The translations under genes and the position numbers were made by a program. Under the pieces are notes generated by a model that saw only the letters and a list, made by a program, of their open reading frames with translations, did no database searches and was not told the origin of the DNA. This document shows, piece after piece, positions 31,166 to 58,528 of a stretch of 64,000 nt of DNA. The number at the start of each line of letters is the position of its first letter. Positions within the stretch are counted from its first letter, which is position 1. This DNA is from Eledone cirrhosa (Eukaryota), in the NCBI GenBank assembly GCA_964016885.1, contig OZ024742.1, positions 75,330,001 through 75,394,000 on the forward strand, written 5' to 3'.

Positions 31166-31331
31166 TATAAAAGTTGAATAAAAGATAATTTATTTCAATC
31201 ACATTATACCATAAATCATCTCAATGTACTATGCAGGCTAAAATCCTTATTTTGTAGAGCATTATTTATTCAAAATATTTTTTAGGAACACTACTCATAT
31301 ATATATAAATATCACGAACGCAGCGTCAAAT

Positions 31332-31386
<55 letters not shown>

Positions 31387-31485
31387 GTGGTGGAACACTC
31401 AGTCCAAGGGACGAGTTAGGTAGAAGTGGTTACACAACAGTTAGTTCACCATATCGGTATAGTGAACTAACTGTTGTGTAACCAC

Positions 31486-31490
<5 letters not shown>
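31387..31490 (-). repeat. 104-bp module A: 70-nt hairpin (33-bp stem, 4-nt loop) plus 34-nt tail, between (TA)n tracts; left inverted copy
   Basis: TAGAAGTGGTTACACAACAGTTAGTTCACCATA-TCGG-TATAGTGAACTAACTGTTGTGTAACCACTTCTA at 31421-31490 (1 mismatch). The module is the reverse complement of 37011-37114. Confidence 0.92.
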
Positions 31491-31556
<66 letters not shown>

Positions 31557-31750
31557 GATAAATCTACCAAAAGTTTACGGTAGTGTCCAATCCGTATGAA
31601 GAACTCAATGTAATCCGGATATCATGGAAAGAAGAGATGCATTCAAAAATCACTTTCGGTGAAAGATAAACGGAATACAGAGTCAAGATAAAATATTTAA
31701 AAAATAATGAATAAAACAAAGAAACAGTTCCTTATATTAAACAAAAAATT

Positions 31751-31893
31751 TTCATTATTTTACGATCGTTTCTAGGACATATATGTGTTAGAATTGGCAT
31801 GCATATTCAAAAGATCTATGTACAAAATTATACAAACTATCAAGGAGAATATACATACCATCACATATATATGCTGTCTTCAGAAATAATGAA
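31751..31893 (-). ncRNA. Type I hammerhead ribozyme motif (left arm of B)
   Basis: Reverse complement of 32551-32693. Confidence 0.75.
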
Positions 31894-32550
31894 GTATATT
31901 TATTGATAATAACAACAATTCAAAATTACAGGTCTGTTTGGGAACAGATTTTAAATAGACCAATGAAATACATAAAATTCATCAAGAAAATACAGTTAGG
32001 TGTGTGTATATATGTAAGTAAATTCGTTCACAGATATGCATAAAATTGTATGTTCATATGCATACGCATGTCGAAAAAGTGTATGTAAATATAAAATACA
32101 TGCATACACACACACTCACATATACATAAACACACACATACACATACGAACACACATATACACACACGCACACACACACATACGTATATATTATTATTAT
32201 AACTATATGGATATTGAGGCGCTCACATAAACACGCCCAACACACTTACATTCATATGCAGAATTAAAGGAGGTAAGCGAGTAAGTAATTAAAGGAGAGT
32301 GTCAAACTCGGCATATTTATAAAAATGTATCTATAAAGTTAGAAATAAAAATTTTTTACATACACTTTTTCGACATGCGTATGCATATGAACGTACAATT
32401 TTATGCATATCTGTGAACGAATTTACTTACATATATACACACACCTAACTGTATTTTCTTGATGAATTTTATGTATTTCATTGGTCTATTTAAAATCTGT
32501 TCCCAAACAGACCTGTAATTTTGAATTGTTGTTATTATCAATAAATATAC

Positions 32551-32693
32551 TTCATTATTTCTGAAGACAGCATATATATGTGATGGTATGTATATTCTCC
32601 TTGATAGTTTGTATAATTTTGTACATAGATCTTTTGAATATGCATGCCAATTCTAACACATATATGTCCTAGAAACGATCGTAAAATAATGAA
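32551..32693 (+). ncRNA. Type I hammerhead ribozyme motif (right arm of B)
   Basis: Stem I TTCATTATTT/AAATAATGAA (10 bp, perfect). Core CTGAAGA at 32561-32567. Stem II CAGCATATATATGTG/CACATATATGTCCTA with a long loop. GAAA at 32672-32675, palindromic stem/loop III ACGATCGT, and a GUA cleavage triplet ending at 32683. Confidence 0.78.
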
Positions 32694-32747
32694 CTTTTTT
32701 TGTTTAATATAAGGAACTGTTTCTTTGTTTTATTCATTATTTTTTAA

Positions 32748-32786
<39 letters not shown>

Positions 32787-32945
32787 AGGAGGTTATAGTT
32801 CACTTGAAGCATTGTGTAATGAGGTATAAACGTTTGTATATGTATAATAAAGCCAAAACAATGCAGGTATGGACATAGAATAAAGAATGCAAATGCAAAA
32901 GATATTGTTGACAATTAGTCTTTTACCTTAGATTTATTTAAATGT

Positions 32946-32980
32946 CCTTAATTTTCGAGATAATATCTCTTCTTCGGAGG
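32946..32980 (-). ncRNA. Minimal hammerhead-like motif in the PLE 3' UTR (inverted arm)
   Basis: Minus strand reads CCT-CCGAAGA-A-GAGAT/ATT/ATCTC-GAAA-ATTA-AGG: U4>C core variant, 3-bp stem I, AATT palindrome at stem III. Confidence 0.5.
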
Positions 32981-33370
32981 GAAGTAAAGCGGTTAAACCA
33001 GTGTTCTAAATAGCTTGCCAAGTCATGCTGACAGGAAATGGTATAGAGTATCTGTTCTATCTCTAATGTCAAAGAGTTAAGGTTAGGTGGATAAAGAGTA
33101 GTCTCCCTTTAAAAGTTTTTTTGTACATGCCTGTTTAAGTGTGTGGGAGAATGCATGAAGGTGTAAGTATGTGAGTGAGTGTGTGTAAGTGTGAGCAGAT
33201 ATGTCTATACGTAAATGTGGAGGATAGATGTTATCTCGTGTTAGAACTGGTCTTTGTGTGTGTATGTGTGTGTGTGGGAGAGAATAAGTGGAGGTGTAAG
33301 CGTGTGTGTGTGCGTGTGTGTGTGCGTGTGTGTGTGGGGTGTGTGTGTAAATATGGGGCTAGAAGCTCTA

Positions 33371-34407
33371 TCAAGTTATAAATTGGGTGTTGAGTTCTAG
33401 TCTATTATTGATTGGTGGTTGTCTTTTGTCTATAATTAGAGCTTCCTTAATTCTAAGATTGCCGAGGTTTCTTTCCTTAGTTTCTATCCTAACTGTTATG
33501 ATTTTGTCGGTGTTTTTGCATTTAACTAGGTGTTTCTTAAATGAAGAAGCGTTAGTATTGAGGTGTTCTTTTATTCTTATGTGGAGTGCTCTGGTGGTGC
33601 TACCTACGTAGAAGTTGCTGCATTTGTCACACTCTAGTCTGTATACGACGTAAGCCTGGTGGCATAGGTCTGTGTCGTTGATGGGGCAGTTGGCTAGCCT
33701 GCAGCAGTTGTCATGTCTGGTGGAGTGTCTTTTGGTTAGCTGTCCTCGTAGAGAAGGACCTGAGTGGGCCAGTTGGATATCTAGTCCCTCTCGTCTGATA
33801 GCTCTGCGGATCGCTGTTGTTGTTTCGTCACTGAAGTGTGGGAGCTTCATGAAGCAAGTGTTAGTGCCTCGGGTGTGGTGTCCTCTGTTCTTTCTGGCAC
33901 GGTTTGTGGTGGATGTCGTGTATCCGTTCAGTTTGAGTACTTCCAGGAAATGTGTGGTGTGTGTGTCTCGGTCTGTAGCGTCGGTGCATTTGTTCCGGAT
34001 ACGTGTTAGTTCGTTCCTTATGTATCCGAACTTAGCGCCGGCTGGGAGGGCCGATCTGAAATGTACGAACAGGTCCCTGCTGGCGGCTTTTTTATAGAAG
34101 CAGGTGTGGATGTTGCCTTCTTCTGTTACCCTGAGTTGGAAGTCCAGTAGGGATAGGGATCCGCGGTATTCGGGGTGTTCCATGCTGAACTTTATACTGG
34201 CGTCCATGCTGGAGAATGTTGTGTATATTTTATCTGCCTCCTCACGGGATGATGTAAGGATGAGTATGTCATCTACATATCGGGTGAAGAAGGTATGGGA
34301 ATGGCAGGTGTTGAGGGCTCGGCATTCTAGCTGGTTCATATAGGTGATGGCCAGCAGGCCCGATACGCTGGATCCCATGGGTAATCTTGTTGTCTGTCTG
34401 TATGTGT
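33371..34407 (-). pseudogene. PLE polyprotein, C-terminal half (RT catalytic motif through GIY-YIG endonuclease), inverted arm
   Basis: Open frame with intact YVDD and the full C-terminus ...NNRLELNTQFIT*. The N-terminal RT is missing, and the ATG at 34450 lies across the inversion junction. Confidence 0.88.
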
Positions 34408-36378
34408 TCATATTGAAACAGAGACTGGACGACAAATTATGGCTCGACATAGAAACGAATTTCTGTCGGGCTGCCTACCAACTAAAATGGATATCGATTC
34501 TCGGCAACAACACAACGGAATCTAACAAACCCAGATTCCCGATATACCAACTGGATCGCCCACTCTGTACACCGCCTGCCAACTGCGAGCTTGAAGAAAA
34601 ACTCTCGACGCTAAAACATTCCGTATTTAACATCTTACGGAAACAGAAGAAAATAGCCCCAAACCTCTCCAGGAAACAACAACTCGCCCTGAAGAACCAA
34701 CGGAATAGGGAACTTATATACTTACCATCCGACAAAGGTAAAGAGTTTTGCGTCATCTCTCAAGCCACATACAACAACCTAGCCTCTGAACACCTAAGCG
34801 ACAATGAATTATATACAGAGATCCCTGACATGACTGCAGCCCAGATCGAAAAACAGACCAACTCCATCTGGTTCGATATCTGTAGGAGAAGACAACTCCC
34901 AAATAAAGTTAAGCTCAACTACACCACTAGAAATAGCAGACTGCCCACTTTGTACCACCTCATCAAGACCCACAATAATAGTACTAAGACGCAAATAAGA
35001 CCCATCGTCTCTAGCATAGAAGGACCCCTATACAACATTTCCTGGCTCCTCTCCCAGGTCCTCAAGCCTCTACTCTCCACCTTTCCCGGGCATGTCAGTA
35101 GCTCCGACGAAGTCATACGTAGACTACAGCAACTCCAGCCAGAACAACTTAAACTAAATAGATACGCCTTTAGCCTCAACGTTGTCTCCCTCTACTCTAC
35201 CGTCCCCGCTCATCCAGCTGTCGATTTATTGACGGACTGCGTGGTCTCAGAGGTCATCCACTGCTACGGCCTCCATCCGACGGACATACACCAGCTTTTG
35301 TCCTTCACAGTAGACAACACGTACTTCACCTTCCACCACCACACATACAGAGAAACAACAGGATTACCCATGGGATCCAGCGTATCGGGCCTGCTGGACA
35401 TCACCTATATGAACCAGCTAGAATACCGAGCCCTCAACACCTACCATTCCCATACCTTCTTCACCCGATATGTATTTGACATACTCATCCTTACATCATC
35501 CCGTGAGGAGGCATATAAAATATACACGACATTCTCCAGTATGGACGCCAGTATAAAGTTCAGCATGAAACACCCCGATGACCGCGGATCCCTATCCCTA
35601 CTGGACTTCAAACTCAGGGTAACAGAGGAAGGCAACATCCACACCTGCTTCTATAAAAAAGCCGCCAGCAGGGACCTGTTCGTACATTTCAGATCGGCCC
35701 TCCCAGCCGGCGCTAAGTTCGGATACATAAGGAACGAACTAACACGTATCCGGAACAAATGCAACGACGCTAGAGACCGAGACACACACGCCACACATTT
35801 CCTGGAAGTACTCAAACTGAACGGATACACGACATCCACCACAAACCGTGCCAGGAAGAACAGAGGACACCACACCCGAGGCACTAACACTTGCTTCATG
35901 AAGCTCCCACACTTCAGTGACGAAACAACAACAGCCATCCGCAGAGCTATCAGACGAGAGGGACTAGATATCCAACTGGCCCACTCAGGTCCTTCTCTTC
36001 GAGGACAGCTAACCAAAAGACACTCCACCAGACATGACAACTGCTGCAGGCTAGCCAACTGCCCCATCAACGACACAGACCTATGCCACCAGGCTTACGT
36101 CGTATACAGACTAGAGTGTGACAAATGCAGCAACTTCTACGTAGGTAGCACCACCAGACCACTCCACACAAGAATAAAAGAACACCGCAATACTAACGCT
36201 TCCTCATTTAAGAAACAACCTAGTTAAATGCAAAAACACCGACAAAACCATAACAGTTAGGATAGAAACTAAGGAAAGAAATCTCGGCAATCTTAGAATT
36301 AAGGAAGCTCTAATTATAGACAAAACACAACCACCAATCAATAATAGACTAGAACTCAACACCCAATTTATAACTTGA
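34408..36378 (+). pseudogene. PLE polyprotein (RT + GIY-YIG), 5'-truncated and damaged
   Basis: Corresponds to ORF 34344-36227. The catalytic YVDD is mutated to YVFD. A +1 frameshift near 36218 (KKQPS* versus KKHLVKC in the other arm) precedes the original TGA at 36376-36378. Confidence 0.88.
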
Positions 36379-36779
36379 TAGAGCTTCTAGCACCATATTC
36401 ACACACACTCCACACACACACACGCACACACACACGCACACGCACACACACACACACGCTTACACCTCCACTTATTCACTCTCACACACACATACACATT
36501 CACAGACCAGTTCTAACACGCGATAATATCTATCCCCCACATTTACGTATAGACATATCTTCTCACACTCACACACACACACTCACATACTTACATCTTC
36601 ATGCATTCTCCCCCACACTTAAACAGGCATGTACAAAAAAACCCTTTTAAAGGGAGACTATTCTTTATCCACCTAACCTTAACTCTTTGACATTAGAGAT
36701 AGAACAGATACTCTATACCAATTTCCTGTCAGCACTACTTGGCAACCTATTTAGAACACTGGTTTAACCGCTTTACCTC

Positions 36780-36814
36780 CCTCCGTAGAAAAGATATTAT
36801 CTCGAAAATTAAGG
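36780..36814 (+). ncRNA. Minimal hammerhead-like motif in the PLE 3' UTR (forward arm, more decayed)
   Basis: CCT-CCGTAGA-A-AAGAT/ATT/ATCTC-GAAA-ATTA-AGG, with two changes relative to the other arm. Confidence 0.4.
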
Positions 36815-36973
36815 ACATTTAAATAAATCTAAGGTAAAAGACTAATTGCCAACAATATCTTTTGCATTTGCATTCTTTATTCTATGTCCATACCTGCATT
36901 GTTTTCGCTTTATTATACATATACAAACGTTTATAACTCATTACACAATGCTTCAAGTGAACTATAACCTCCT

Positions 36974-37010
<37 letters not shown>

Positions 37011-37015
<5 letters not shown>

Positions 37016-37111
37016 GTGGTTACACAACAGTTAGTTCACCATACCGATATGGTGAACTAACTGTTGTATAACCACTTCTACCTAACTCGTCCCTTGGACT
37101 GAGTGTTCCAC

Positions 37112-37114
<3 letters not shown>
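37011..37114 (+). repeat. 104-bp module A': hairpin plus 34-nt tail between (TA)n tracts; right copy
   Basis: Hairpin at 37011-37080 with loop CCGA, followed by the tail CCTAACTCGTCCCTTGGACTGAGTGTTCCACCAC. Confidence 0.92.
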
Positions 37115-37164
<50 letters not shown>

Positions 37165-38625
37165 CATAATAATAATGATAATAATAATAATAATAATTAC
37201 GTGGTGGATAAAAGGTCATGAAATCGGTCCCGTAAGTTTTTGATTTTTAACATATTTAAACCAATTGTGAAATAACAATTCCTAGTACAAATGATACATA
37301 AAGCACCAGACTCAATTCGCAGAAAAATTCTGATCCATAATATATTGTTATATCGTTCAAATATTCAATTTTGTATTATACATTTTATATTCAAAAAAGA
37401 ACATGGTCATAAATGGAAGAAAACCCCCTCTGTCTACACTATATAGAACAGCCAAATAACAGCAATTTCACAAACACCAGAAACTAGATACACCACCTAC
37501 CCCTCTGTGTACACTAAATACAACAGCCAGATAACGGCAATTTCACCACCACCACCACCACCAATCCCAGCATAATAATAATAATTACTATTATTATTGT
37601 CTCAAGTTTTAACAAAATGTTTAATTCCAATATTAAGGGAATATGTCAACACATATATTAAACATACGCGACAAACGCATAAATACACAGATCAAACACA
37701 ACTACAGTCTATTCAACAAAACTCAGTAACGACAAACGCCATCACTATAGTCACCGCCGCCACCACTCCATCCATCATTGCTACCACTATCCCATCCCAT
37801 CACCGCCGCCACCACTCCTTCATTGCTACCACCGCTATTCCCCCATTACCTTCTGTTAACTTACGAAAGGGGAAGGTGGCGGTATCACTAGACAATATTA
37901 ATAAACAATATTAATATTTAATTTTGGATTAGGAATGTTGAATTCGAAAAGGAGGAAAATGACAAAATGACTAAATAGCTAAATAGCTAAAGATAATTTC
38001 ACCACCAACACCACCACCACTACCACGCTAAAAACTCTGGTCAAGTTGCCTCAACCTCTATTTCTACTTCAACTTCAACACCATCACTACAGTACTACGA
38101 TCACATCACCACCACCACTGCCTCATTATCGCTGCCGCCGCTATTCGCTCCCACTACCTCCTGCTAGGTACTACTAGCACAGCACCACCACCACCACCAC
38201 CACTGCCTAATTATCACTACCGCCGCTATTCTCTCCCACTACCTCCTGCTACATCGTAGTGTCCCCACTAAAAGAGGAAGGCATCAAAATATATAAATAG
38301 ACTGAATTGATGACCCGGTCAAAATCAAAAAACCAAAATCAAAATCGAAGCAGCACAGCAACAACGAAAAACGTAAAGAAAAGTAAAATGAAGAGAAGAA
38401 CAAACAGACGGACATAGAAGGGAAGGGAAAAACTAAGTCAGACATTCAAACATTACATTACAATGACACATATGCTTATTCATTTTTTGATTTTTTTTTG
38501 CCTGTCTGTTTGTTTATTTATGTTCGTCTACAGCGTGATAATGCCACACAAAAATCACCGGAAGTGACGAAATCACCGGTGGTTATGTAACCATACATTC
38601 GTCAATCCTCGATAAGAGTGTTTAA

Positions 38626-41600
38626 ATGTCGAACCTAAACAGTTCGAATAACGGTGAAGTGGAGACTAGAATGTCATGTGACAGACTCTCACCCAACAGG
38701 TGCTCCCTGGCTCAGCAGCAGGGACTTGGCTGTCAACCAAATACTGCTGGTGTCGGAGGAAGAAGAAGAAGGAAAGGGACCAGAACCAACTGGACGAAAG
38801 AATTGAATAGAACTATTATGCAATGTTACCTGAACAGTAACCCCAAGGAGAAAGGCTATAGGAAACGGATGCATAACATCTGGAACGAGATTGGTCTATT
38901 TAAATTAGATGAACAAAAAGTGGCAAGGCAGGCTCGGGTAATAAGAACTAATGGGTGGATAAGCGAGCTGGAACTGGAGGAAATGAGCAGAGAGATTAGC
39001 TTGGAAATGGAGAGTGGAGTATGCCAGGCAGACGAGCCAGGGGGAAATGAAGGTGAAGAGGTCGAGACAACGGAGGAACGATCCGAAGCAGACAATGATC
39101 TGAATGCTGAAATAAATAATACCTGGAACAGAGATACGGCCACTGAGGAGATGAATGCTGACGGGCTAGGACAAGATTTGGTTGATATCCTAAACTTAGT
39201 GGTAGATGAATTGAACAATGATAGTGGGAAACCTATGAACCTAAGATTTGTAGACAGGAAAAAGTTAAAAGAAACAACAGCTAAGGTAAACAAAGTCATC
39301 CCATACCTTGAGGCGAGGAGCCTTCACCAGTGCAACAATATCCTCAAAGCAACAGCAAATACGGTGAGGAAATTACTTGGTATAAAAGCGAGAGGAAACA
39401 ACAAACAAGAAAGATCAGAGCCTTGGTGGAAGAAACGACTGAGTGGTCCAATCAGGGAAATGAGAAATGACATTGGAAAGCTTGAGTCCCTACTGAATGG
39501 GACACTAAAAAACATAGACACTAAAAATAGACTGGAAATAAAGTACAAAACTAGGAGGAAAAAGCTAAATGTTATCATAGAGCAACTAAAGCAACGCATT
39601 GTAGCAAAGAGTGCAAAAATCAGGCGATACGAGAACAGAGTCAGTCAGTATAGACAGAACCGCATGTTTGACAACAACCAGAAGATGCTGTTTGGACAGC
39701 TTGAAGGGAAAGAAAGAGGCAACGACTTGATCCCTGAGGCGGAACACACAAAAACATTCTGGAGAGGAATATGGGAGCAGGATGTTAAACATAATGACCA
39801 GGCAGTGTGGATTGAGACAATACAGAAGGAGATTAGTGAACAGGCACACCAACAAACTGATTTGAGTATCACAGTTGAAGCTCTTAAGGGGCAGGCCAAA
39901 AAACTAACCAACTGGAGATCACCAGGTCCAGATGGTGTGCAGGGGTATTGGATTAAAAATATAACATCCCTCCACCCGAAACTGACAACCATGTTCAATG
40001 ACTGCTTGATGTCAGATGAGGTACCAGAGTTGTTGACAAAAGGTACCACAGTTCTGGTAATGAAAGACCGAATCAAGGGTAATGATGTTACCAACTATAG
40101 ACCTATCACATGTCTGTCCGTAATGTGGAAACTGTTGACAAGCATTATGTCTGAGGAAATCTACCATCACCTCCACACAAACAACTTGTTACCGGACGAA
40201 CAGAAAGGATGCCGAAAGAAGTCCCGTAGTACAAAAGACCAGTTACTTATTGATAAGATGGTAATGAGGAATTGCAAGAGGAGACACACTGGTCTTGCCA
40301 TGAGATGGATAGACTACAAAAAGGCATTTGACATGGTGCCTCATTCTTGGATCACCAAAAGCCTGGAGATCTTCAGGGTGGCAGATAACATTAGACAGCT
40401 GTTGGGCAAAAGTATGAAGTCCTGGGAAACAGAGTTAACATCAGCTGGAGAATCCTTGGGAAGCGTGAAGATCAAGAGAGGTATCTTCCAGGGAGATAGT
40501 CTGTCCTCTCTGTTGTTTGTCCTTGCCCTGATGCGCCTGACCAGTATACTGCGAAAAGTGAGAGCAGGATACAGGTTGGGAAAGGGAGGGCTTACCATCA
40601 ATCACCTCCTCTTCATGGACGATCTTAAGCTCTTCGGGAAGAGTGAGAAGTAGTTGGATGTGCTTATTGACACTGTCCGTATTTTCAGCAATGATATATG
40701 TATACAATTTGGTATTAGTAAGTGTGGAGTCCTTGTGATGAAGAGGGGTAAATTGAGCAGAAGTAATGGAATCCAGGTACCAACAGGTGACATGATAAAG
40801 GAAATTGACACTGAAGAAGGATACAAGTATTTGGGTGTTCTAGGGGATGATGACATCAAGAACAAAAAAATGAAGGAATTGTTAAGAACTGAATATATTC
40901 GGAGAGTAAGGAGCGTATTAAAGTCACATCTGAACAGTAGGAATGCCATAAGTGCAGTAAATTCCCGAGCTGTGTCTATTATTAGGTACAGTGCGGGAAT
41001 TCTGAAATGGAATGTTTCTGAACAAAAAGAAATGGATAGGAAGACTAGGAAGTTATTGACTATCTACAACATGTTCCACAAGAGGAGTGATGTCGATAGA
41101 CTCTACTTAAGGAGATCTGAAGGTGGAAGAATTCTTATCATCATAGAAGACTGTGTTCAGATGGAGAAAAACAACCTACACAAATACGTGACTGATAATA
41201 GGGAGCCAATGCTCAGAATTATACTGAAGGAGAGGACAATAGACCAGGGGATGTTCAAGGAGGAAATAACAGCAAGGAGAAAGAGCAATCTTCATGAAAA
41301 ATCCCTTCATAGTACCTTCTTTGATAAAACTGAATTTAGAGATCCACAGACATGGAACTGGTTGAAAAGAGGAAACCTTATAAAGGCTACAGAAGGAAAG
41401 CTAATGGCTGCCAAAGAGCAGGCCCTCAAAACGAAGTGGCTGAAACACCATATTTACAAGGAGGAGGCTATCCCACTGTGTAGGATATGTGGAGAGAGAG
41501 AGGAGACAGTGGCTCACATTGTATCCGAGTATAAACACCTAGCCCAGACTCACTATAAGGGCTGGAGACATGATGTGATAGGCAGGGTCATCCACTGGCA

Positions 41601-42049
41601 CCTATGCAAAGTAAACAATTTACCACATTCTGAGAAGTGGTATGAGCATAAGCCAGAGTCGGTGATAGAAAACGATCAGGTGAAAGTGCTGTAGGATTTT
41701 AGGATACAGACTGACAAGAAACTGGAACACATTAGACCTGACCTGGTGATTGTGGACAAAGAAAAAAGATCGTGCCTGATTGTGGATGTGGCCTGCCCAT
41801 TCGACACGAGAGTGCAAGAGAAGGAGAGGGATAACATTAACCGATACCAGGACTTAAAGTGGGAGGTAAAAAGGATTTGGAACTGCCATGAAGTCAAAGT
41901 GGTCCCGATTGTCATAGGCGCACTTGGTACTATCTCAAAAAGTTTCCAGGGATGGTTAAAGAAAATTGGCCCCTTCACGCTTTTTGGAACGTTTCAAAAG
42001 GCATGCTTGCTGCGAACAGCAAGAACCCTCCGATACGCCTGAACATCTG
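38626..42049 (+). pseudogene. R4/Dong-like polyprotein with in-frame TAG stops at 40651 and 41692 and a terminal frameshift
   Basis: ORFs 38626-40653, 40654-41694 and 41746-42042 are collinear in one frame. Confidence 0.9.
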
Positions 42050-42126
42050 AGGCTGCATGTAGTGGCTTGATATTCATTTCAACAAACTTCCAGTTAACTA
42101 ACATGAATGACTGAGACTCAAAGAAC
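38626..42126 (+). mobile_element. R4/Dong-like non-LTR retrotransposon (single ORF: RT, zinc knuckle, restriction-like endonuclease), copy 1; true 5' end not resolved
   Basis: Motifs: SPGPDG, NYRPITCL, EQKGCRK, DYKKAFD, GIFQGDSLS, LFMDDLKL, CRICG..EETVAHIVSE, RHD, RPDLVIVD...IVDVACPFD. Short 3' UTR, then (AAT)n. Confidence 0.92.
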
Positions 42127-42148
42127 AATAATAATAATAATAATAATA

Positions 42149-42234
42149 ATTGTTTCTACTTTTGGCACAAAGCCAGCAATTAACCAGTGTATTACTGGTA
42201 CTTTATTGTATCGACTCTGTAAGGATGAAAGGCA
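42149..42234 (-). mobile_element. 5'-truncated SINE (3' part) inside (AAT)n
   Basis: Reverse complement matches TGCCTTTCATCCTTAC...GTACCAGTAAT...TGTGCCAAAAGTAGAAACAATT of the other copies. Confidence 0.88.
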
Positions 42235-42257
42235 ATAATAATAATAATAATAATAAT

Positions 42258-43835
42258 ACCAAATACAGCTGGTGTTGGAGGAACAAGAATCAACTGGACG
42301 AAAGAATTGAAGGGAACTGACATGGAATGTTACCTGAAGAGTAACCCCAAGGAAAAAGGCTATAGGAAACGGATGCATAACAACTGGAACGAGATAGGTC
42401 TATTTAAATTAGATGAACAAAAAGTGGCAAGGCAGGCTGGGGCAATAAGAACTAATGGATGGATAAGCGAGCTGGAACTGTGGGAACTGAGCAGAGAGAT
42501 TAGCTTAGAAATGGATAGTGGAGTATGCCAGACAACCGAGCCAGGGGGAAATGAAGGTGAAGAGGTTGAGAGAACGGAGGAAGCACCGAGGTAGACAATG
42601 ATCTGAATGCTGAAATAAATAACATCTGGACCAAAGATACGGCCATTGAGGAAATGAATGCTGACGGGTTAGGACAATATTTGGATGATATCCTAAACAT
42701 AGTGGTAGATGAAATGAACAATGATAGTGGGAAACCTATGAACCTAAGATTTGTAGACAGGAAAAAGTTAAAAGAAACAACAGCTAAGGTAAATAAAGTC
42801 ATCCCATACCTTGAGGCGAGGAACCTTCACCAATGCAACAATGTCCTCAAAGCAACAGCAAATGAGGTGAGGAAATTACTTGGCATAAAAACGAGAGGAA
42901 ACATCAAACAAGAAAGATCAGAACCTTGGTGGAAGAAACGACTGAATGGTCAAATCAAGGAAATGAGAAATGACATTGGAAAGCTGAGTCCCTACTGAAT
43001 GGGACACTACAAAACATAGACACTAAAAATAGACTGGAAATAAAGTACAAAACTAAGAGGAAAAAGCTAAATATCACCATAGAGGAACTGAAGCAACGCA
43101 TTGTAGCAAAGAGTGCAAAGATTAGGCGGTATGAGAACAGAGTCAGTCAGTATAGACAGAACCGCATGTTTGACAACAACCAGAAGATGTTGTTTGGACA
43201 GCTTGAAGGGAAAGAAAGAGGCAACGACTTGATCCCTGAGGCTCACATTGTATCCGAGTGTAAAAACCTAGCCCAGACTCACCATAAGGGCTGGAGAGAT
43301 GATGTGATGGGCAGGGTGATCCACTGGCACCTATGCAAAGTAAACGATTTACCACATTCTGAGAAGTGGTATGAGCATAAGCGAGAGTCGGTGATGGAAA
43401 ACGATCAGGTGAAGGTGCTGTAGGATTTTAGGATACAGACAGACAACAAACTGGAACACAATAGACCTGACCTGGTGGTTTTGGACAATGGAAAAAGATC
43501 GTGCCAGATTGTGGATGTAGCCTGCCCATTCGGCACGAGAGTGCAAGAGAGGGAGAAAATTAACCGATACCAGGACTTGAAGTGGGAGGTAAAAAGGATT
43601 TGGAATTGCCATGACTTTAAAGGGGTCCCGATTGTCATAGGCTCAAAGAGTTTCCAAGGATGGTTAAAGAAAATTGGTCCCACCCCGATTTTTGGAACAC
43701 TTCAAAAGGCATGCTTGCTGGGAACAGCAAGAACCCTCCGATACGTCCTGAATATCTGAGGCTGCAGGTCGTGGCTTGATATCATTTCAACAAACTTTCC
43801 TGTTAAATAACATCAATGACTGAGACTCAAAGAAC
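42258..43835 (+). mobile_element. R4/Dong-like copy 2, 5'-truncated, with an internal deletion of the RT
   Basis: Aligns to 38736-39740 and then 41514-42126 of copy 1, with the same 3' end GACTGAGACTCAAAGAAC. (AAT)n flanks both sides. Confidence 0.92.
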
Positions 43836-43856
43836 AATAGTAATAAAAATAATAAT

Positions 43857-46800
43857 GATTTCTTTATTGGCCACAAGGGCTGACATCAAGAAAAACATTA
43901 CAGATGGCCCAGGACGGTACAGGACGGTACGATGTGGGTTTTGTGCGTGTAAAGATTTTTATCATTTATATAAGAAAAGAAAAAAAAGATATAGAAACAT
44001 ATATATATATAAACAATAAAAATGAAAATTGAAACAATGAAAAATTCCCCAATAGGAGGGAAACCCCCGAGGGTTACTTGTGGTGAAAACCACACAAAAA
44101 ACCACGGCCACCCTGACCACCAGGGCAAGCGCCCTTTTCTCAATTTTTTTCTCATTCCTCAAACTACAAGCGTATATTCAGAGCGGTCCCGTTCACTCGG
44201 ACCATTCTCGCTACATTCATCCACCTTTCAACAAACCTGCTAGAAGACAGCACTTGCTTCTCTACACTGATTTTCCTCTTCAAGTGAAAGTCGATAACCG
44301 GATCGTCCTATACCTTCGACATAGATCCACAAGTCAGCAATGCTCGGGCACTGAACGAGTGCGTGCACGACGGTTTCGTCGCTTTGCGCGCATCTCGGAC
44401 AGGCTCGGCTGACGGCACTTCGTGCCTGTAGAGCTTATCTCGAACCGGCAAAGATCCTCGGTAGTAATGCCATGCCAGGGATTTTTGGGAGTTATCCATA
44501 GGCTCTGGGCTGAAAGTTATCCGGAAGACAGCAAACAGCTGATTTTATTCGATGCCCAGGATCTCTCCAATAACGTCGTAGCTCTTCTCCTCCACTTGTC
44601 CTCTATAGAACGCCGAGGTGGGTGTTCCACCGATACTGGTGCCCAGCTGGCAGAGGGCAGTGAGCTCCTGGAGACATTCCAGTTTCCAAGCGCTATCCCT
44701 CGGCCTTTTCTTGACCCAGGACTGCAGTTCTGTCAAGGAGACGAGCTGGGGAAAACCGCGTCTGGCAAACGGCGACCACACCTGTTCACCGTCAAGGAAG
44801 CACCAGAGATGTCGCAGCCTCAGCGCATGTTTGCGCATCATCAGCCACGAAAGGGGTGTTGACAGCAGATGCTTCGTCTGAACATGGGAGCGCGCCCCTT
44901 CCACAAAAAGCGCAAGAGGAGGCGCTCCATTTTTGTGAGAGATGGGCTGGGGAAAGCGACGACGGTGAGGCGGTAGCAGATGGCGGATGCGATGTACACA
45001 TTCGCCACCTCCGCCCTGCATTTCAGGGACAGTTTTCTCTCGGCCCATTTCTGGGTGAGGGAGGCCATCCTGCTCGTCACTTCGCTCCAGTCTTTCTCCA
45101 TCTGGAGGTCCGGACCGAACCAGACCCCGAGCAATTTAACCGGTCCGTCCGTCCAACGCACCCGACGCTGTCGGACGACACGGACTTGCCTCTCCAGGTG
45201 TCGAGCTGTAAGCCCACCGACTTTTCCTGGTTTATCTTTGCTCCTGTCACCGCTTCGTATTCCTTGAGAGCGGTGCCGAGCATCTGGACGTGCCTGGTGG
45301 TAGACACCACAACGTTGAAGTCGTCGGCGCAAGCCGACTCGGATTTCCCGTTTCCTAGTTCACGTGGGACGCCCCTCATCGCCCCCAGTTTGTGCAGTAA
45401 CTTGCTTGAGAGCCAATACGTACAAGAGGGAATAGAGGGGACAACCCTGGCGGACTGAACGCATGAATCTGAACGGCTGCGACAGATGACCGTTCACCCT
45501 CACAACTGAGCAGATGTCGCTGGACATCACAGCGATCCAACTCCTGAAAACGGGTCCGAAACCGGCTGCCTCGAGGACCGCCGCCAGGTACCGATGGTCG
45601 ACCCTATCGAATTCTTTGGATTGATCCAAGTTGATCAGGGCCCCACCCGTGCCAGGTTCCTTAACCACCCTCTCTACGATCTATCGCATGAGGTGGAGGT
45701 TGTCGTTTATGGATCTGTCCGGAATGGTGCATGTCGGCACGTCTCCCACCAGACCATCGACGACAAGCCTCTACCTCGTTGCTAACACCTTGGCCAACAT
45801 CTGGAACTCTGCGTTTAGCAGAGTTATGGGCCTTAAGTTATCGAGAACATCCCATTGTTCGGGTCTTTTCTCACAGGCGCCACCGCTCGACGGCTCACAA
45901 AACTGGGAATGCTCCCGTGCTGCTGCCAGTTGCAGTAGACGTCTGCCAAGAGGTCACCGAACAGGTCTGGCATAAATGCATAAAGCTCTTAGGGCTGATC
46001 CATCCAAACCTGGCGATTTACCGCTCGTGCAGTTAACCATCGCATCACGTATTTCACCGGCTGTTATAGCTTTTCGCAACACTGTGCTGCGGTCGTCGAG
46101 AGCCGAGGTAGTCCGTTGATGTATGCACCGAAGTTCATACCCCGATCCCTCCCGCCGCTGATCCCCAACGGTTCAGCAATGTGCTGTTGAAAAGCCTCCC
46201 ACATCTGCTCGGGTTCGATCAACACGCACCCGTTTTGGTCAGACAAAGACCGAATTGTGGCTTGTTGCCACGTCGCGCCTCTGCCACACGGGCGCATTGC
46301 ACGGCTTTCGTCCCCTCGTGTTTCAGAGCACACGCTCTAGCACTGACAACGTAGCCTTCATGCTTTGCGTTGAAGAATTGGTCGAGTGCCAATCTCGCCG
46401 CAAGCACGTCGGTTGCGATGCCTGTCCTAAACGCCTCTTCTAGCTTTCTAACTAACTCTCCCTCTACTCTATTTTCCTCTATCACTACTTTGCTAAACCT
46501 AATCGATTCTACTTTAATTGCCCTTTTCAGGGCAAACCACCACCTGTTGTTGACGACCGCTCCCGTCAACGCCCGCTTAATTAATACGCTGATCCGGTCT
46601 CTGTAGGCTTTGCGCGCCGGGAAAGACGCGTTCAGCTTCCAGTAACCGGGTCCTTGTCTATGGAGTCTGTCTATGTCGATCTCACAGATCACAAATTTGT
46701 GGTCTGTGTAGTCGACTATTTTAAATTGTAGACAACTTATACTAGCCTAATCTAGTTCTCTGCAGAATACACGATCGAGATACGATCTGGATGACACGAT

Positions 46801-47342
46801 GGGGTTTGTCCATGTCCACATTGGCACATTCGGGTGACCCAGTCGATACGTTCACCCTCCTCCCCTATCTACTATCCCCACACAATCCCAGCGTTCATCC
46901 AAGATACCGTTCCAGTCGCCCACTAACACTAAAGAGCGGGGGGTCCAAGAAAAGTCTCTAGACGTCTGAAGAAATCTGGCCCTCCTGTCCCAGTTGGGGC
47001 GTAGACGGCTACTAGCCTGAAAGCATTGCCTTCGTTGCCGGTCACGTCCAGCACCACCGACTTACCTTCTGGGTCTAGCAAGATGGCCCGTATGGCGTGA
47101 TCCAAGCCTCTCCGAAAAAGGACGGCAACGCTCTCCCCATTCATTGACGGCTGCGAGATGCGTATACATCGTAGCCGCTGAAGATCGGTGCTTCGGAGAT
47201 TCTGGTCTCGCTGATGGCCACCACATGTATGTTTAGTGACCTGAGGTCGTTGAGCAGGTGGCCCTGCTTCCAAGATGACCCCAGGCCATGTGCATTTATA
47301 CAGTCTATTCATAGTGCGGCCATGTTGGATGAGAAACGGGGC
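43857..47342 (-). mobile_element. Tx1/L1-clade LINE copy 1 (ORF2 only: APE + RT + Zn finger; 44164-47323, many frameshifts)
   Basis: Motifs: GPGYWKLNAS, DQSKEFDRVDH, SVRQGCP, SACADD, LSLKCRA. AATAAA then an (ATT)n tail. Candidate TSD AAAATAATAAT at 43846-43856 and 47343-47353. Confidence 0.9.
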
Positions 47343-47353
47343 AAAATAATAAT

Positions 47354-50300
47354 GCTTTCTTTATTAACCACAAGGTTTACACAGAGTAAAACATTAAGGG
47401 CAATACAGAACAATACAGGATGGTACAAATGGGCATTTCTGCGTATAAAAAAAGAAAACAAAATCAGAGGAATTAACAAAAAAAAAAAATGAAAAATTCC
47501 CCAATAGGAGGGAGACTTCGGAGGGCCATTCGTGGAGAAACCCCACTTAAAAAGCCACGGTGACCCTGACCACCGGGGCAAGTGCCCTCTCCCAGTTTTC
47601 CACCTTCAATTTACAGGCACATACACGGAGTAGGGCCATTCACTCGGAGCATTCTTGTCTTTCTCACCCATCTTTCAATAAAATGGTGGGAAGAGAGCAC
47701 TTCCCTTTCTAACCTGATTTTCCTTTTCAAATTAAATTTCAAAAAGTTAATCAGGGCATCACCGAAGGGGATCAGCCCTTTCAAACGCGTCCACCACACT
47801 ATCTCTTTCGCCATGGCCACCAGACAGATAAAAACTTTCTGTCCTTCCCGGCTAAAGGAGGAGGGCGGGAAATCCTCACGATGGACTCAGCTGATAGCCG
47901 GATCCGTCCTACACACGACAGCAGGTGTTCGACATAAACCCAAGTTCGACATAAACACAAGTCAGCAATGCTCGGAAACTGGACAAGTGCGTGCAGGACG
48001 GTTTCCTCGTTCTGCGTGCATCTCGGACATGACCGGCTGACGGCACGTCCATGCCTGTAGAGTTTATCCCGAACTGGGAAATCTCCTCGGTAGCACTGCC
48101 AGGCCAGGGATTTCTGGAAGTTGTCCATAGGCCCCGGCCCGAAAGTTCTTCCGTAAAGTTTGGCTAGTTGATTTTCGTCGACGCCTAGAGTTTCCCCAAG
48201 TACGTCGGCGCTCTTCCCCTCCACTAATCCTCTATAGAACGCCAAGGTGGAGTTTCTACCGATCACATTGATCTAGAGATTTAAGCGCCTGAAGACATTC
48301 CAGTCTCCAAGCGCCCCCTCTCGGTCTTCGCTTGACCCAGGACTGCAGCTCCGTCAAGGAGACGAGCTGGGGAAAGACGCGTCTAGCAAACGGCGTCCAC
48401 ACCTGATCACCGTCGAGGAAGATATGGAGATGTCGTAGCCTGAGCGCGTGTCGGCGCATCATCAGCCACGACATGCCCAGCTCTCTACGTAGCGGGTGTT
48501 GACAGCAGATGCACCACCTGACCATTGGAGCGTGTCCCTTCCACAAAATGCGAAAGAGCAAACGCTCCAGTGCAGTCAGGCGAGGCTTAGGACAAGGCAC
48601 GACGGTCAGGCGGTAGTAGATGACGGACGCGATGTACGCATTCACGACATCTGCTCGACCTTTCAGGGATAGCTTCCTCTCTGCCCATTTCTGGGTGAGA
48701 GAAGCCACCCTATTCGTCACCTTGTCCCAGTTTTTGTCCGTCTGGAGGTCCCGACCGAACCAGCCCCCTAGCAATTTAACCGGTCCGTCCGTCCAGCGCC
48801 GAACGACGCTGTTCGACGGCATGGACCTGTCTTTCCAGGTGCCGAGCCTCAGGCCCACGAACTTTTCCTGGTTGATCATTGCTCCTGTCACCGCTTCGTA
48901 TTCTCTTAGTGTAGTGCCGATTGGCTCGATGTGTTTGGCGTTCGAAACCACTACGGTGACATCGTCCGCATATGCTGACACGGATCTTCCGCATCCTAGT
49001 TCGCGCGGGACCCCTCTCAGCGTCTCCAGTCTGTACAGTAATGCCTCGCGAGTCAATACGTACAAGAGGGACGAGAGGGGACATCCTTGGCAGACCGAGC
49101 CCATGATGTTCAACGGTTCTGGAAGGTGACCGTTTACTCTCACCACAGAGCAGATGTCGCTGAGCATGGCAGCAATCCAGCTTCTGAAGACGGGCCCAAA
49201 GCCAGCCGCCCTCAGGACTGCCTCCATATAACGATGGTCGACCCTATCGAAAGCTTTCGACTGATCTAAATCGATCAACGACCCACCCGTTCCAGGTTCC
49301 CTAGCAACCCTCTCCACGATGTAACGCATGAGGTGGAGGTTGTCGTGGATGGATCTGTCTGGAATTGCGCATGTCTACGCCTCTCCCACCAGACCACCAA
49401 CGACAAGCACCAACCTCTTTGCTACCAGCTTGGCCAAGATCTTTTTCCATACTGTTTCCCATTCCTCCTCGTGATCACAGTCTGTCTCAAGTTGTGACAG
49501 GTCGGGGAGTGGAAAATCCTCCACAGGCGTTGGTTTTGGTTGTAGCGTGGTGGGTGGTGGAGGCGCTGGTGCTAATTCTGGCGTGGCGGGTAGTGGTGGT
49601 GTTGGTTTTTTACTGTTGCTGCTACAGTTGCTGTTGTTGGTGCTGCTAAGGTTGTTTCTGTTGTTGCTGATACAGTTGTTGGTGCTATTTCTGCTGCTGG
49701 TTTTGATGGTTGAGTCACTGGGTTGGACAGGAGTAGTGGCCTCAACCTTTTAGCCTGAGGGCAGAAAGCCCTTAGGTGGGTTCCTTCGCCACAAACGACA
49801 CACCTAGGCCTTCTACCCTCAACGATTACGGTGAGGTGGCTGCCTTCATTGAGGTCTATCACCTCTGGAATTTCCTGTATGTATTTTTGGTTCGCTTGGA
49901 TCAGGAGCTCCATCCTAGATCTGGACCAGTTCTTCTGCTTTACTTTTATCGCCTCAATTACCTTTGTGTCGGCAAGGACGGCAACCATTAGCCAGTGAAT
50001 TTCAATGGCCGGCGTAACCTGGATCACCCTTATCCTTACCAGCCTCTGATTTCAATAGCTTGGGACGAGTGTGAACTCGTCACTTTTTAACTGGACCATG
50101 GAGTGCTCTCTGGCTTCCTGTGGGGTTCCAAAGAACACTTCCACGGTTCCATATTTTTGCCCACGTCTGATGTGGGTTTTTTGAGCCCACACATGTCCCA
50201 ACGCTATTTGTACCTGGGACTCGGATACCCGTTCCACTCGGCTGTTTAAATATTTATTGTGCGATATGACACGGTGCATAGGCACCGATGCTCCATGGTG

Positions 50301-51327
50301 TTAGTTGGGGGTGGGGGGTGGGGGTCGAGTGCGGCTGCCCCTGTAACCATATTTTTTTACCATTCGCTTGCCTTCATTCAATTCTTCCTGGCTTACCTCA
50401 GCCGTTTCGTTTTTGTTTGACGCTTTAGCAAACGACATATTTGGTTTTGCGATGGTATTGATGTTGTTGTTGTTATTCCTATTCTTGCTGTTGTTGCTGT
50501 TGTTGTTATTGCTATTTTTGTTGTTATTATTATTAGTTTCAGTTGTGGTGGTGGTGGTGTCAGTGGCGTTCGGCGTGGAAGAGTCGATTTTGGGAGAATC
50601 CATTTCGATATCACGAGATAATAATTTACTTTTTGTTTCGGTTGTTGCTGTGGTGGTGGTGGTGGTGATATCAGTGGTGTTCGTTGTTCTTTTTGACATT
50701 GTGGTGGTGGGGATGGCGACTTTAACACTTGTAGACATTGGTAATGGCGGGAAATCGATGTCTGCATGTGACAAATCTAAATACTTGCCACTGCTATTAT
50801 TTATATTTTTAGGGCGGTGGATTGGCAGTATCGGTAGAGGGTCGGACGCCATGCTTTGACGCATAGAGTTACGGCCCTTGCCATTCTCAGTTCAAATCCC
50901 GCCGAGGTTAACTTTGCTTTTCATCCTTACGGGGTCGATAAAATAAAGTGCCAGTAATACACTGGGTAATTGCTGGCGTTGTGCCAAAAGTAGAAACAAT
51001 TATTTATATTTTCAGTGTTGGCAACTGTAGCAAGGTTTACAATGGTGGTCGTGGGAGATGTTAGTCTGTTAGGAAACGCTGTCAGCAGATTTGGGTGGCT
51101 GAATGCCGTCAATGTTTTATTTTTCAAAGAAATCTTTTTTGGATAAAATAAAGTTTGAATTTTGGGCTCAAGGCCCCAATATTATTGAGTGTCCTTTTCA
51201 GAAAGCAATATATATGAATTAGAAAACACTTAACAACAAACGTTTTCCATAATTTGCAATTTGAAACAACTGAAAACAACAAACCTTTGTGGAGCTCACG
51301 ATAATGCGATTTCCTACGTAGGTCGCC
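47354..51327 (-). mobile_element. Tx1/L1-clade LINE copy 2: ORF1 (CCHC knuckle) joined directly to the RT by an internal deletion; interrupted by a SINE
   Basis: ORF1 contains RCVVCGEGTHLRAFCP. RT contains DQSKAFDRVDH, QGCPLS and SAYADD; CPRC..ETVLHAL follows. The 3' UTR is homologous to copy 1. The 5' end is inferred from (AAT)n resuming at 51328. Confidence 0.85.
50812..51001 (+). mobile_element. Full-length tRNA-derived SINE with 14-bp TSD
   Basis: A-box-like TGGCAGTATCGG (50823) and B-box GTTCAAATCC (50890). TSD ATTATTTATATTTT at 50796-50809 and 50999-51012. Confidence 0.92.
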
Positions 51328-53694: not shown

Positions 53695-54573
53695 ATGCCA
53701 GAGAGGAAAATAAAGCGAGAGTGTGTTCAGGCATTTTATTGTAGAGAAACAACTTCAATATATAGATCTTTTCCTTTGTTAAAATCTGTTTTCACGAACT
53801 TTTAATTGCAACGGGGAATAACGACTTCAATGTTCTCCTCATTGGTCAAGTGAGGTATATGGTGGTGTGGGATCAAGGAAATCGTTTGTGCACGCTTTAA
53901 TGATTAACTTGTAAAGTCCATCATGTTTAGACTTGTAGTGGAAAGCAAGAAATAGCAAGAATGTTAGAGAGAGGGAGGGAAAGAGAGGGAAAGGAAAAGA
54001 AAGGGGAGGTTGAAAGATAATGAGGAAAGATATAATTGCTGTCTCATTTAATGCTTCTATATATATAGTATGATTCATTAACGTCCGTGTAATCCGGTGC
54101 TGTGTGTGTGTCAGTGTTTGCTAAATGATCCTGACAGCTATGCTCAAAGTAAAAATAATACATACATATGTATATATACCTCCATACGTAGATATCTGCA
54201 TGTATGCAAATATTTGTGTTCTTTCAATGACAAACGTATGCTTACACATACACACAAGCGTGCGCACGCACACAATCACCACACACGAACACACATGCAA
54301 ACAAACACATATACGCGCTCTTATATGCAGAAATCTACAAGAACAGTGATCAGTTATCAGATGTCTCCTTCGATCTTTCACGATCTTATCTAAAAGCAGT
54401 CTTTTTTATTCTTAGTAGGATAATTAAATAGCGAGTATATCACATAGTTGATATGTAGAGGGAACATAAAAACCTGTATCTCTGGCATTCGTTTTACCTT
54501 TATTAACAAACATAGGTATGTCCTTAAAAGATATGCTTCACAGCCATGTGCTTTTCGTTATATTACCAATACG

Positions 54574-54708
54574 CATAGTTACGTCCCTTTACAATCTGAG
54601 TTCAAATCCCGCCAAGGTTAACTTTGCTTTCATCCTTACGGGGTAGGTAAAATAAAGTACCAGTAATGCACTAGTTAATTGCTGGCCTTGTGCCAAAAGT
54701 AGAAACAG
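54574..54708 (+). mobile_element. 5'-truncated SINE with 16-bp TSD
   Basis: B box and 3' body present. TSD TTATAT(T/G)ACCAATACG at 54558-54573 and 54709-54724. Confidence 0.88.
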
Positions 54709-55022
54709 TTATATGACCAATACGTAGTGCACTGGGAAAGTGTATAACATACGCTTCCGTCAACCAAAACCTTGTGAGTGAACTTTGGTTGGCGGAAATT
54801 GTGTAGAAGCTCAATGGAAGGATCGTTTTAGTATTACCTTTTTAGGCTTAACCCATAACCTGGTTTAAGTTTACTAACTGGCGTATGGTTGTCTTAAGCA
54901 GAAATCGCTTTTCTGCAAGCATTCAGATCATGTCTTTGTTCTGAAGATACTTTAATATCTTTCTCTGTTCAATCTTACAAGTTCTGGAAAAGACAATGGG
55001 CGCTGCCTTTCTTATATTATTA

Positions 55023-55150
55023 GCCATTCTGAGTTCAAATCCCCCCAATGTTAACTTTGCCTTTCATCGATACGGAGTCGATGAGATAAAGTACCAGTAA
55101 TGTACTGGATAATTGCTGGCCTTGTGCCAAAAGTAGAAACAATTATTATT
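55023..55150 (+). mobile_element. 5'-truncated SINE
   Basis: GAGTTCAAATCCC...CCTTGTGCCAAAAGTAGAAACAATTATTATT. Confidence 0.88.
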
Positions 55151-55487
55151 ACTTCGTATTGCCACATACGTTGTTCCCTCATTTTTATTCTCTTATCTTT
55201 ATTGTCCCCTTGCTTTCGATCGCTTTATCATAATTTGTTATTGTCGATCGCCATGCTTAATTATCATTTCCTTATATTTCCATCAGTAATGATTTCTTAC
55301 ATTGGCACACGATCAGAAATCATGGAAGAAGGAACAATCAATTATATCGATCCGTACTCAGTACTTATTTCATACTTATGTTATCAACGACGAAATTATG
55401 CCCTGGCGAAAGCCCCCAAGAATTACAATGTTCTCCCCGCCTTTATGATTTCCGCTTACCTTTATTGCCCTTTATTTTTCTATTCAT

Positions 55488-57735: not shown

Positions 57736-57906
57736 TGTTTCTACGTTTGGCACAATGCCAGCAATTATCCCAGTGCATTACTGGTACTTTATTTTATCGA
57801 CTCCGTAAGGATGAAAGGCAAAGTTAACTTCGGCGGGATTTGAACCCAGAATGGCAAGGGCCGCAACTCTATGCGTCAAAGCATGGCATCCGACCCTCTA
57901 CCGCCC
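57736..57906 (-). mobile_element. SINE with a short internal deletion in the head
   Basis: Reverse complement of the 50812 family, flanked by AGTGTTAAATAAT at 57723 and 57908. Confidence 0.9.
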
Positions 57907-57920
57907 TAGTGTTAAATAAT

Positions 57921-58140
57921 GATTTCTTATATAGTCACAAGGCCAGCAATTTTTGGGGAGGGAAAAGTCGTTTAAATCGTCCCCAGTATGTTACTGGTGC
58001 TTTATTTTATCGACCCCGTAAGGATGAAAGGCAAAGTTAACCTCGGCGGGATGTGAACTCAGGTCATAAAGGGCCGTAACTCTCTGCTACAAAGGATGGT
58101 GTCTGACGCTCTACCGGTACTGACAATCCACTGCCCCACC
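57921..58140 (-). mobile_element. SINE, longer-tailed subfamily
   Basis: Same head and body with an extra ~25 nt in the 3' part, flanked by AGTGTTAAATAAT at 57908 and 58142. Confidence 0.9.
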
Positions 58141-58341
58141 GAGTGTTAAATAATGACTGCTATTTCAGTCATATTTAAATTCTTCAAACTATGTATTAGT
58201 TTCATATTTATTAGAATAGGTTTTCTTTTAGTTATATAAACTTAAATATAGACTTTCGTTTCATGGATGCTAGAAAAATACCTATTAATGGGAAATAATT
58301 GAATATGATTATTTTCAGTTTTATTACTACCATTATTTAAT

Positions 58342-58528
58342 GATGGATTGGCAGTATCGGTCGAGGGTCGGACGCCATGCTTTGCAGCAAAGAGTTACAG
58401 CCCTTTATGATCTGAGTTCAAATCCCGCCGAGGTTAACTTTGCCTTTCATCTTACGAGGTTGATAAAATAAAGTACCAGTAATACACTGGGATAATTGCT
58501 GGCCTTGTGCCAAAAGTAGAAACAATTA
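58342..58528 (+). mobile_element. Near full-length SINE
   Basis: A box, B box and tail as in the 50812 copy. Confidence 0.9.

Follow-up and report, generated by a model that had tools for sequence, protein, structure and literature searches.

The window, a 64,000-nt stretch of the Eledone cirrhosa genome (assembly GCA_964016885.1, contig OZ024742.1, positions 75,330,001 to 75,394,000 of the forward strand, here numbered from 1), carries one type I hammerhead motif on each strand, at 32551-32693 (+) and 31751-31893 (-). A pattern scan confirmed this pair, which had been recognised in a sequence-only reading: when stem I had to span 7 bp or more, exactly two type I motifs passed (cores at 32561 on the plus and 31883 on the minus strand). 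Both have the order CUGANGA ... GAAA ... UH and GAAACGAUCGUA, with a stem I of 10 bp and cores 104 nt apart. In the plus-strand copy, stem I is perfect (32551-32560 paired with 32684-32693) and encloses the core CUGAAGA with its C3-G8 pair (32561-32567), stem II (32568-32671) and a segment (32672-32683) made up of GAAA (32672-32675), the palindromic helix III ACGAUCGU (32675-32682) and A17. The cleavage site is GUA and the cut is predicted after 32683, so that the cleavage product would begin with the 3′ strand of stem I. In the minus-strand copy the core starts at 31883, the cut is predicted after 31761 and the putative RNA start lies at 31890. Cores, cleavage site, stem I, the stem III palindrome, the core-to-core spacing and the C·A mismatch at the base of stem II all stand as first read, as do the 402-nt inverted arms that contain the motifs (31688-32089 and 32355-32756). 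The arms differ at three positions, all outside the motif core and stems, and the two hammerheads are identical over the motif. A core-gap-core pattern returned 5,576 matches in the genome against 2 in a reversed control, and therefore the motif is not a chance match. Rfam models, suggested earlier as a check, gave no hammerhead at the gathering threshold or among 22 matches (E values up to 10), likely because of the 100-nt insert.

This insert, stem II, differs from what was first described. A loop of ~74 nt had been proposed; instead, the 104 nt fold as an irregular ~36-bp hairpin of four helices with a 4-nt closing loop. From the core outwards, stem II consists of the C·A mismatch, two pairs, a C·C mismatch, an 11-bp helix, a 14-bp helix and the apical helices, with an apical motif (GAU[ANUU]UGUA...UACA[UAG]AUC) at 32603-32631. 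The predicted folding energy is -34.2 kcal/mol (z -5.4), and none of 500 dinucleotide shuffles folded as low. Downstream of the motif, a competitor strand UUCAUUAUUU (32733-32742, plus strand) lies immediately ahead of the short 3′ end of the element and is predicted to pair with 32684-32693, replacing stem I.

Both hammerheads are almost certainly the mirrored 3′ ends of a single inverted, 5′-truncated, (TA)n-targeting insertion (a stub) of a Hydra-type Penelope-like element (PLE), as judged from the sequence. The insertion (31554-32756, ~1.2 kb, with no ORF in this copy) comprises two head-to-head 5′-truncated 3′ ends, or pseudo-LTRs, both of which match the 3′ end of ORF-bearing copies, and is flanked by (TA)n target sequence on the left (31489-31553) and right (32754-32784). 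The left arm (31688-32351, minus strand) contains the pseudo-LTR and a remnant of the 3′ UTR. It meets the right arm (32355-32756, plus strand), which has no tail, at an inversion junction (32352-32354) that lies ~200 nt upstream of the right core, away from the hot spot at -7 seen elsewhere in the family and described below. The one-sided 134-bp tail (31554-31687, minus strand) is the segment between a long and a short 3′ end, and in tandem copies it continues into the ORF leader; its two ends may both be reverse-transcription starts, or one start and one resolution site. Both family 3′ ends fall at TTTATCT next to microhomology with the TA-like target (window 32745-32760 and 31554-31566). 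As had been suggested, read-through RNA is predicted to fold back over both hammerheads, with a computed 400-bp duplex.

The insertion interrupts a different PLE, itself an inverted duplication (32785-37168; RVT_1 and GIY-YIG), whose left arm resumes at 31331-31525 and which weakly matches the ORF of the hammerhead family. This host PLE has an RT and GIY-YIG ORF at 34344-36227 and a 1.7-kb inverted duplication, and type I scans of 32754-37168 found no hammerhead. At both of its ends a near-perfect 29-bp hairpin lies between TA tracts (31421-31488 and 37011-37080). Elsewhere, a 29-bp satellite array of ~950 copies fills window positions 3-27409, and broken LINE-type RT copies, one of them partly duplicated, occur at 38626-43860, 44032-49443 and 62013-64000.

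The right arm has 987 candidate copies in the 3.0-Gb genome, and the 40 that were scored are 98-100% identical. An intact copy of the family encodes an 817-aa ORF, and the window arm is the 3′ end of such an element. The ORF contains DKT, RWR, YRDD, CxCX5C, a GIY-YIG-like stretch and C-terminal CxxC and CxH, and has neither CX2-5CxxC nor CCHH. Published diagnostics of Hydra PLEs are DKT, an RWK-like motif, CxCX5C, C-terminal CxxC and CxH, and the lack of CX2-5CxxC and CCHH (PMC8557442); the family ORF shares all of these, with RWR replacing RWK. A Pfam search of the ORF and its fragments gave no match. We found 62 homologues of the ORF; a profile of 39 of them matched a retron RT weakly (E 8e-4), and within these 39 one sequence matched RVT_1 and three matched GIY-YIG. 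The ORF motifs, (TA)n target and layout point to an EN+ PLE of the Hydra type. In full tandems, hammerheads flank the ORF, one ~345 nt ahead of the ATG and one 2.5-3.6 kb beyond the stop codon, so that the hammerhead-to-hammerhead unit is 5.4-6.5 kb. This exceeds the <3 kb typical of Hydra elements (PMC8557442) because of a long, repeat-rich 3′ UTR.

The divergent pair had been viewed as a special arrangement. Since the hammerheads are the arms of one insertion of an abundant PLE, it proved to be the ordinary layout of the family, and one already published for PLEs (PMC8557442). Counted by eye, the first 100 pattern matches contained 28 divergent pairs with partners within ~11 kb, and the spacers of divergent pairs range from 6 nt to 9 kb. 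Past the cut site, one arm extends for ~70 nt and the other for ~205 nt; exactly one tailed arm was present in 44 of 45 short inverted insertions (49 loci minus four without two hammerheads). Inverted 5′-truncated PLE copies with a one-sided tail are known (PMC8557442), as are opposite-strand hammerhead pairs 100-700 bp apart (PMC4209133), and the tail of PAc, a Poseidon element of Anolis, has been explained by two internal copy-start sites (PMC11167929). The arms of a pair always belonged to the same sub-lineage, with no chimera in 53 pairs; chimeric arms would have pointed to two independent RNAs. A non-LTR retrozyme was rejected in the absence of short non-coding head-to-tail tandem units, and a MITE or other DNA transposon because the tail is asymmetric, the junctions vary and there are no symmetric terminal inverted repeats of fixed length.

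The family comprises over 11,000 hammerheads in this genome. Matched patterns found 10,613 copies with C3-G8, 1,003 with U3-A8, 61 with C3·A8 and 95 with U3·G8, and the controls gave 0 each. The U3-A8 swap preserves the one Watson-Crick pair of the core (3-8), and the lineage that carries it also has two stem I pairs changed on both sides. Pairing was then assessed across 12 subfamilies; at their most divergent, the ORFs linked to them share about 60-75% identity. In stem IIa, the core-proximal helix, 107 of 108 cells were paired and seven of nine pairs were changed on both sides, compared with 66% paired in the best slid control and no equally good result in 5,000 strand swaps. These pairs were counted anchored on the core, because MAFFT misaligned stem IIa between lineages. 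For stem I, the 3-8 pair, the apex and helix III together, 97.8% of cells were paired and 5 of 21 pairs were double-changed, a number reached by 20 of 500 shuffles; the three double-sided changes in stem I all fall within its first 7 pairs. As the U3-A8 swap is a single evolutionary event and the subfamilies are related, the shuffle controls overstate covariation. In addition, the cores and the 2-bp helix III were fixed in the search patterns, and their invariance is therefore built in.

At 10.1-11.1, the typical but non-obligatory G10.1-C11.1 pair is absent: 11 of the 12 subfamilies have C·A and one has U-A. The C·C at the fourth position is likewise found in 11 of 12, and this retention suggests that both mismatches are a feature rather than decay. 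Position 17 is A, U or C depending on the lineage; G occurs in 30 copies compared with A in 5,576, about the level expected of single changes after insertion. The apical motif, an internal loop, is invariant in the 12 subfamilies while the helices beneath it vary, and its candidate roles are a protein site, a tertiary contact or a DNA promoter element (a K-turn was rejected by eye). Together, the conserved C·C and the apex are candidates for a tertiary contact between helix I and helix II.

Conservation of the core and covariation across copies had been named as a check in the earlier reading. In agreement with a hammerhead, stems I and II and the 3-8 pair covary, and no failure of conservation was found. 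Based on the covarying stems, the U3-A8 swap in the core and the C·A kept in 11 of 12 subfamilies, the motif is very likely under selection, presumably as a self-cleaving ribozyme.

Within the family, one lineage has a UUGANAA core that lies 10 nt upstream of a CUGAUGA, which lacks a stem I when read as the core. Other hammerheads were observed alongside this family. At least two further groups have 90-105-nt inserts and the same helix III; one forms a three-way junction with G-C or U·U at the base, and another is older and diverse. No linked ORF was found in the genomic stretches around copies of these groups. One core-to-core junction of the older type also has 7-nt arms. The TA tracts around the insertions contain many more type I hammerheads, which are short and have a palindromic helix III.

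The 5′ ends of family copies were mapped for the first 100 copies of 16,425 matches to the 3′ half of the motif alone, with both arms of one insertion counted separately and six assignments set by hand. In 32 of these 100 consecutive copies, the 5′ end lies 1-8 nt upstream of C3. The other ends fall within the 117 nt of core and stem II (18), at 9-217 nt (17) or further away (27), or are interrupted by a SINE (6), so that the 8-nt zone has ~25 times more ends per base. Six copies read as ending at -7 were SINE insertions beyond which the element continues, and these were removed from the count. Core-to-core junctions across 6-36 nt number 1,220 genome-wide compared with 1 in the control, and 84 of the 90 arms at 45 such junctions reach no more than 7 nt beyond the core; the longer junctions are re-copies of the same end. 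The A at the putative start lies in TCATT, which we take to be an initiator-like word. After the full 7-mer, the first free base (n = 28) was C in nine cases, A in seven, T in seven and a genomic G in five; the C excess comes from a small count, with p of 0.001 against a 12.5% background and 0.10 against 25%. A C on the cDNA would be expected from copying the cap G, and untemplated G at full-length L1 and SVA ends has been ascribed to cap copying (PMC3287187).

Taken together, the pile-up of 5′ ends, the core-to-core junctions, the arms that stop at 7 nt and the extra base suggest that a capped RNA probably starts at A 32554 (TC followed by ATTATTT), 7 nt before the core and inside each arm. 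Such a start would leave a 7-bp stem I, and these 7 pairs hold all the double-sided changes of that stem. Transcript starts in the spacer had earlier been suggested, and the 5′ ends of the copies instead point to starts 7 nt upstream of each core, within the arm. The same start signal may occur in several of the published Hydra hammerheads, in which TCATT or CCATT precedes the core by a few bases (PMC8557442, File S2).

Some observations weigh against a start at -7. In every case the extra C could also have arisen when copying briefly jumped back to the core; AAATAATTATTT is self-complementary; and the junction in the window lies ~200 nt further upstream. A tRNA-like SINE inserts at the same ATTATTT in 6 of 100 copies, and this, together with the self-complementarity of AAATAATTATTT, means that the -7 site may be special as DNA. 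In that case the hammerhead would work, but the pile-up at -7 would reflect a hot spot of DNA repair or self-priming at the palindromic AAATAATTATTT and a nuclease-prone ATT; RNA would start further upstream and the ribozyme would only trim or circularise tandem transcripts. Palindromic junctions such as AAATATTT are indeed common, paired arms share a sub-lineage (no chimera in 53), a SINE targets the same site, PAc cuts ATT (PMC11167929) and an earlier proposal explains such junctions by self-priming (PMC3846280). However, the fully self-complementary ATATATAT tracts in stem II collect few ends, the pile-up has a sharp upper edge at 7 nt with longer junctions re-copying the same 7 nt, solo copies end there too, and the extra base favours a cap. 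We therefore regard a hot spot as unlikely, though well worth keeping in mind, and an RNA start at -7 as the better account of these ends.

The SINE itself has an (ATT)n end and target duplications, and represents about seven separate events at the ATTATTT of the family. In the copies examined, the corresponding sequence on the opposite (3′) strand of stem I was free of such insertions. In the window, tRNA-like SINE sequence occurs at 42145-42235, 50812-51011, 54571-54712, 55023-55151 and 57728-59051.

Folding predictions agreed with the earlier suggestion that the hammerheads act as dimers through the palindromic helix III. The active dimer was computed at -80.4 kcal/mol compared with -72.4 kcal/mol for two monomers, and the palindrome itself at -10.0 kcal/mol as an intermolecular duplex compared with +2.4 kcal/mol as an intramolecular hairpin. 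The active monomer was 3.4 kcal/mol above its computed minimum. The competitor strand can form all 10 pairs with the 3′ half of stem I in 11 of the 12 subfamilies and 9 of 10 in the twelfth, and it is predicted to win over stem I in the fold of the window RNA. For RNA starting at -7, the predicted probability of stem I was near 0 in all nine C3-G8 subfamilies, even at a stage when the competitor has yet to be transcribed, and cleavage as a monomer is therefore not predicted.

A probable mechanism can be outlined. An internal promoter would start RNA at A 32554, and the enzyme of the element would start to copy the uncut RNA at 70 or ~205 nt beyond the cut site and run off its capped end. The cDNA would then be joined head to head, either as two cDNAs from one source or as one that snapped back, giving rise to divergent pairs. 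The ribozyme would normally be off, since stem I would have only 7 AU-rich bp and the downstream strand would take its 3′ half. The competitor and the monomer energetics predict that the copied RNA is uncut, which agrees with the presence of the whole motif in the copies and with the uncut template of PAc. Cutting as a dimer or with protein help would strip the ORF-bearing RNA of its capped 130-nt leader, and would also end tandem transcripts. In a bolder reading, the hammerhead would act as a decapping switch at the very front of an mRNA that starts at -7, held off by the competitor and triggered by dimerisation or protein to alter translation or stability, and the 1,200 core-to-core insertions would record RT run-off. 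We put this bolder reading forward tentatively, as a possibility to work with rather than as the expected outcome.

Alternatively, the motif may no longer cut, and its core and long stem may persist as a platform to which the protein of the element binds or as DNA of an internal promoter. The C·A and C·C near the core end of stem II, an apex that is invariant without covariation, an active monomer that is not favoured and the low in vitro activity of minimal PLE hammerheads (PMC4209133) would all suit a non-cutting motif, but the 3-8 core pair covaries and position 17 stays A, U or C, both of which are features of catalysis. Moreover, many published Hydra hammerheads also have a mismatch, U·U, at 10.1-11.1 (PMC8557442, File S2), and loss of cleavage is therefore improbable. 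That the divergent pair here is a selected device (a source of dsRNA or a ribozyme switch that works in both directions), or that it is a MITE bounded by terminal inverted repeats, is scarcely credible, because its 402-bp near-perfect foldback and the TA at both insertion ends are set against thousands of such pairs with spacers of 6 nt to 9 kb, a one-sided tail, arms that are the 3′ ends of an RT-coding element, and a window copy that is young (98-100% identical to others) and lies within another repeat beside a satellite array.

The window pair is thus an ordinary stub, and the hammerhead, the kind of element and the layout are known; what appears new is the long covarying stem II, the long tail, the competitor strand and the likely cap-adjacent position. 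In searches of the openly accessible literature, we found no 100-nt stem II and no cap-adjacent PLE hammerhead. More than 11,000 hammerheads in one genome are missed by Rfam models and short-stem descriptors. The role of the hammerhead in EN+ PLEs and the origin of head-to-head insertions have been called open (PMC8557442, PMC3846280, PMC11167929), and this family supplies exact positions for tests: the putative start at -7, the predicted cut at 17, the two 3′ ends, naturally occurring C3-G8 and U3-A8 versions, and copies with an intact ORF. If true, RT run-off at the cap would show that head-to-head Penelope insertions arise from sense RNA.

According to the available text of PMC8557442, Hydra PLEs resemble this family in their ORF motifs, (TA)n target and type I hammerhead near the 3′ end, and in their partial tandems, inverted 5′-truncated copy, one-sided tail and mismatched stem II base. 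In contrast, stem II has 3-7 bp and loops of 3-10 nt in all 26 Hydra rows of File S2, compared with ~100 nt here, its base is U·U or G-C rather than C·A, and the tail is 30-40 bp rather than 134 bp. With stems of 3-7 bp, often on a U·U base, in File S2, the long arm is a variant and the mismatch has precedent; U·U at 10.1-11.1 is tolerated in published hammerheads (PMC8557442, PMC7229834). The PLE hammerheads of PMC4209133 are also type I, with a palindromic helix III, a dimer model, a U3-A8 variant and similarly spaced opposite-strand pairs. Their helix II is 6-8 bp with a conserved G10.1-C11.1, unlike the family here, and the available text describes neither a competitor strand nor a link to a start site, both of which are proposed here.

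PAc resembles this family in that two internal copy-starts downstream of the hammerhead define the tail (PMC11167929). Both target strands are cut and extended, and uncut RNA is the template. PAc does not require its hammerhead to insert in vitro; the hammerhead itself depends on protein, and RNA-seq gave no reads that stop at the cut site (PMC11167929). However, PAc belongs to a different clade, its hammerhead overlaps the start codon, and the available text of that study analyses neither 5′ run-off nor inverted junctions. In Drosophila virilis, Penelope has a TATA-less internal promoter in the pseudo-LTR (PMC2377424), like the start proposed here. That element has a 75-nt intron between start and hammerhead (PMC2377424), whereas here no AG precedes -7 and the distance from the putative cap to the hammerhead would be 7 nt.

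Type I hammerheads in the 5′ UTRs of fungal and plant RNA viruses (PMC13725137) share the leader position ahead of an ORF. For these virus leaders, cleavage and cap-independent translation have been demonstrated (PMC13725137); for the family here, cleavage is a prediction and an effect on translation a possibility. Finally, metazoan non-LTR retrozymes (PMC7229834, 10.64898/2026.07.22.740005) carry type I hammerheads with a weak helix III, as here. They are short non-coding tandem repeats, whereas the hammerhead family described here forms the end of an autonomous element.
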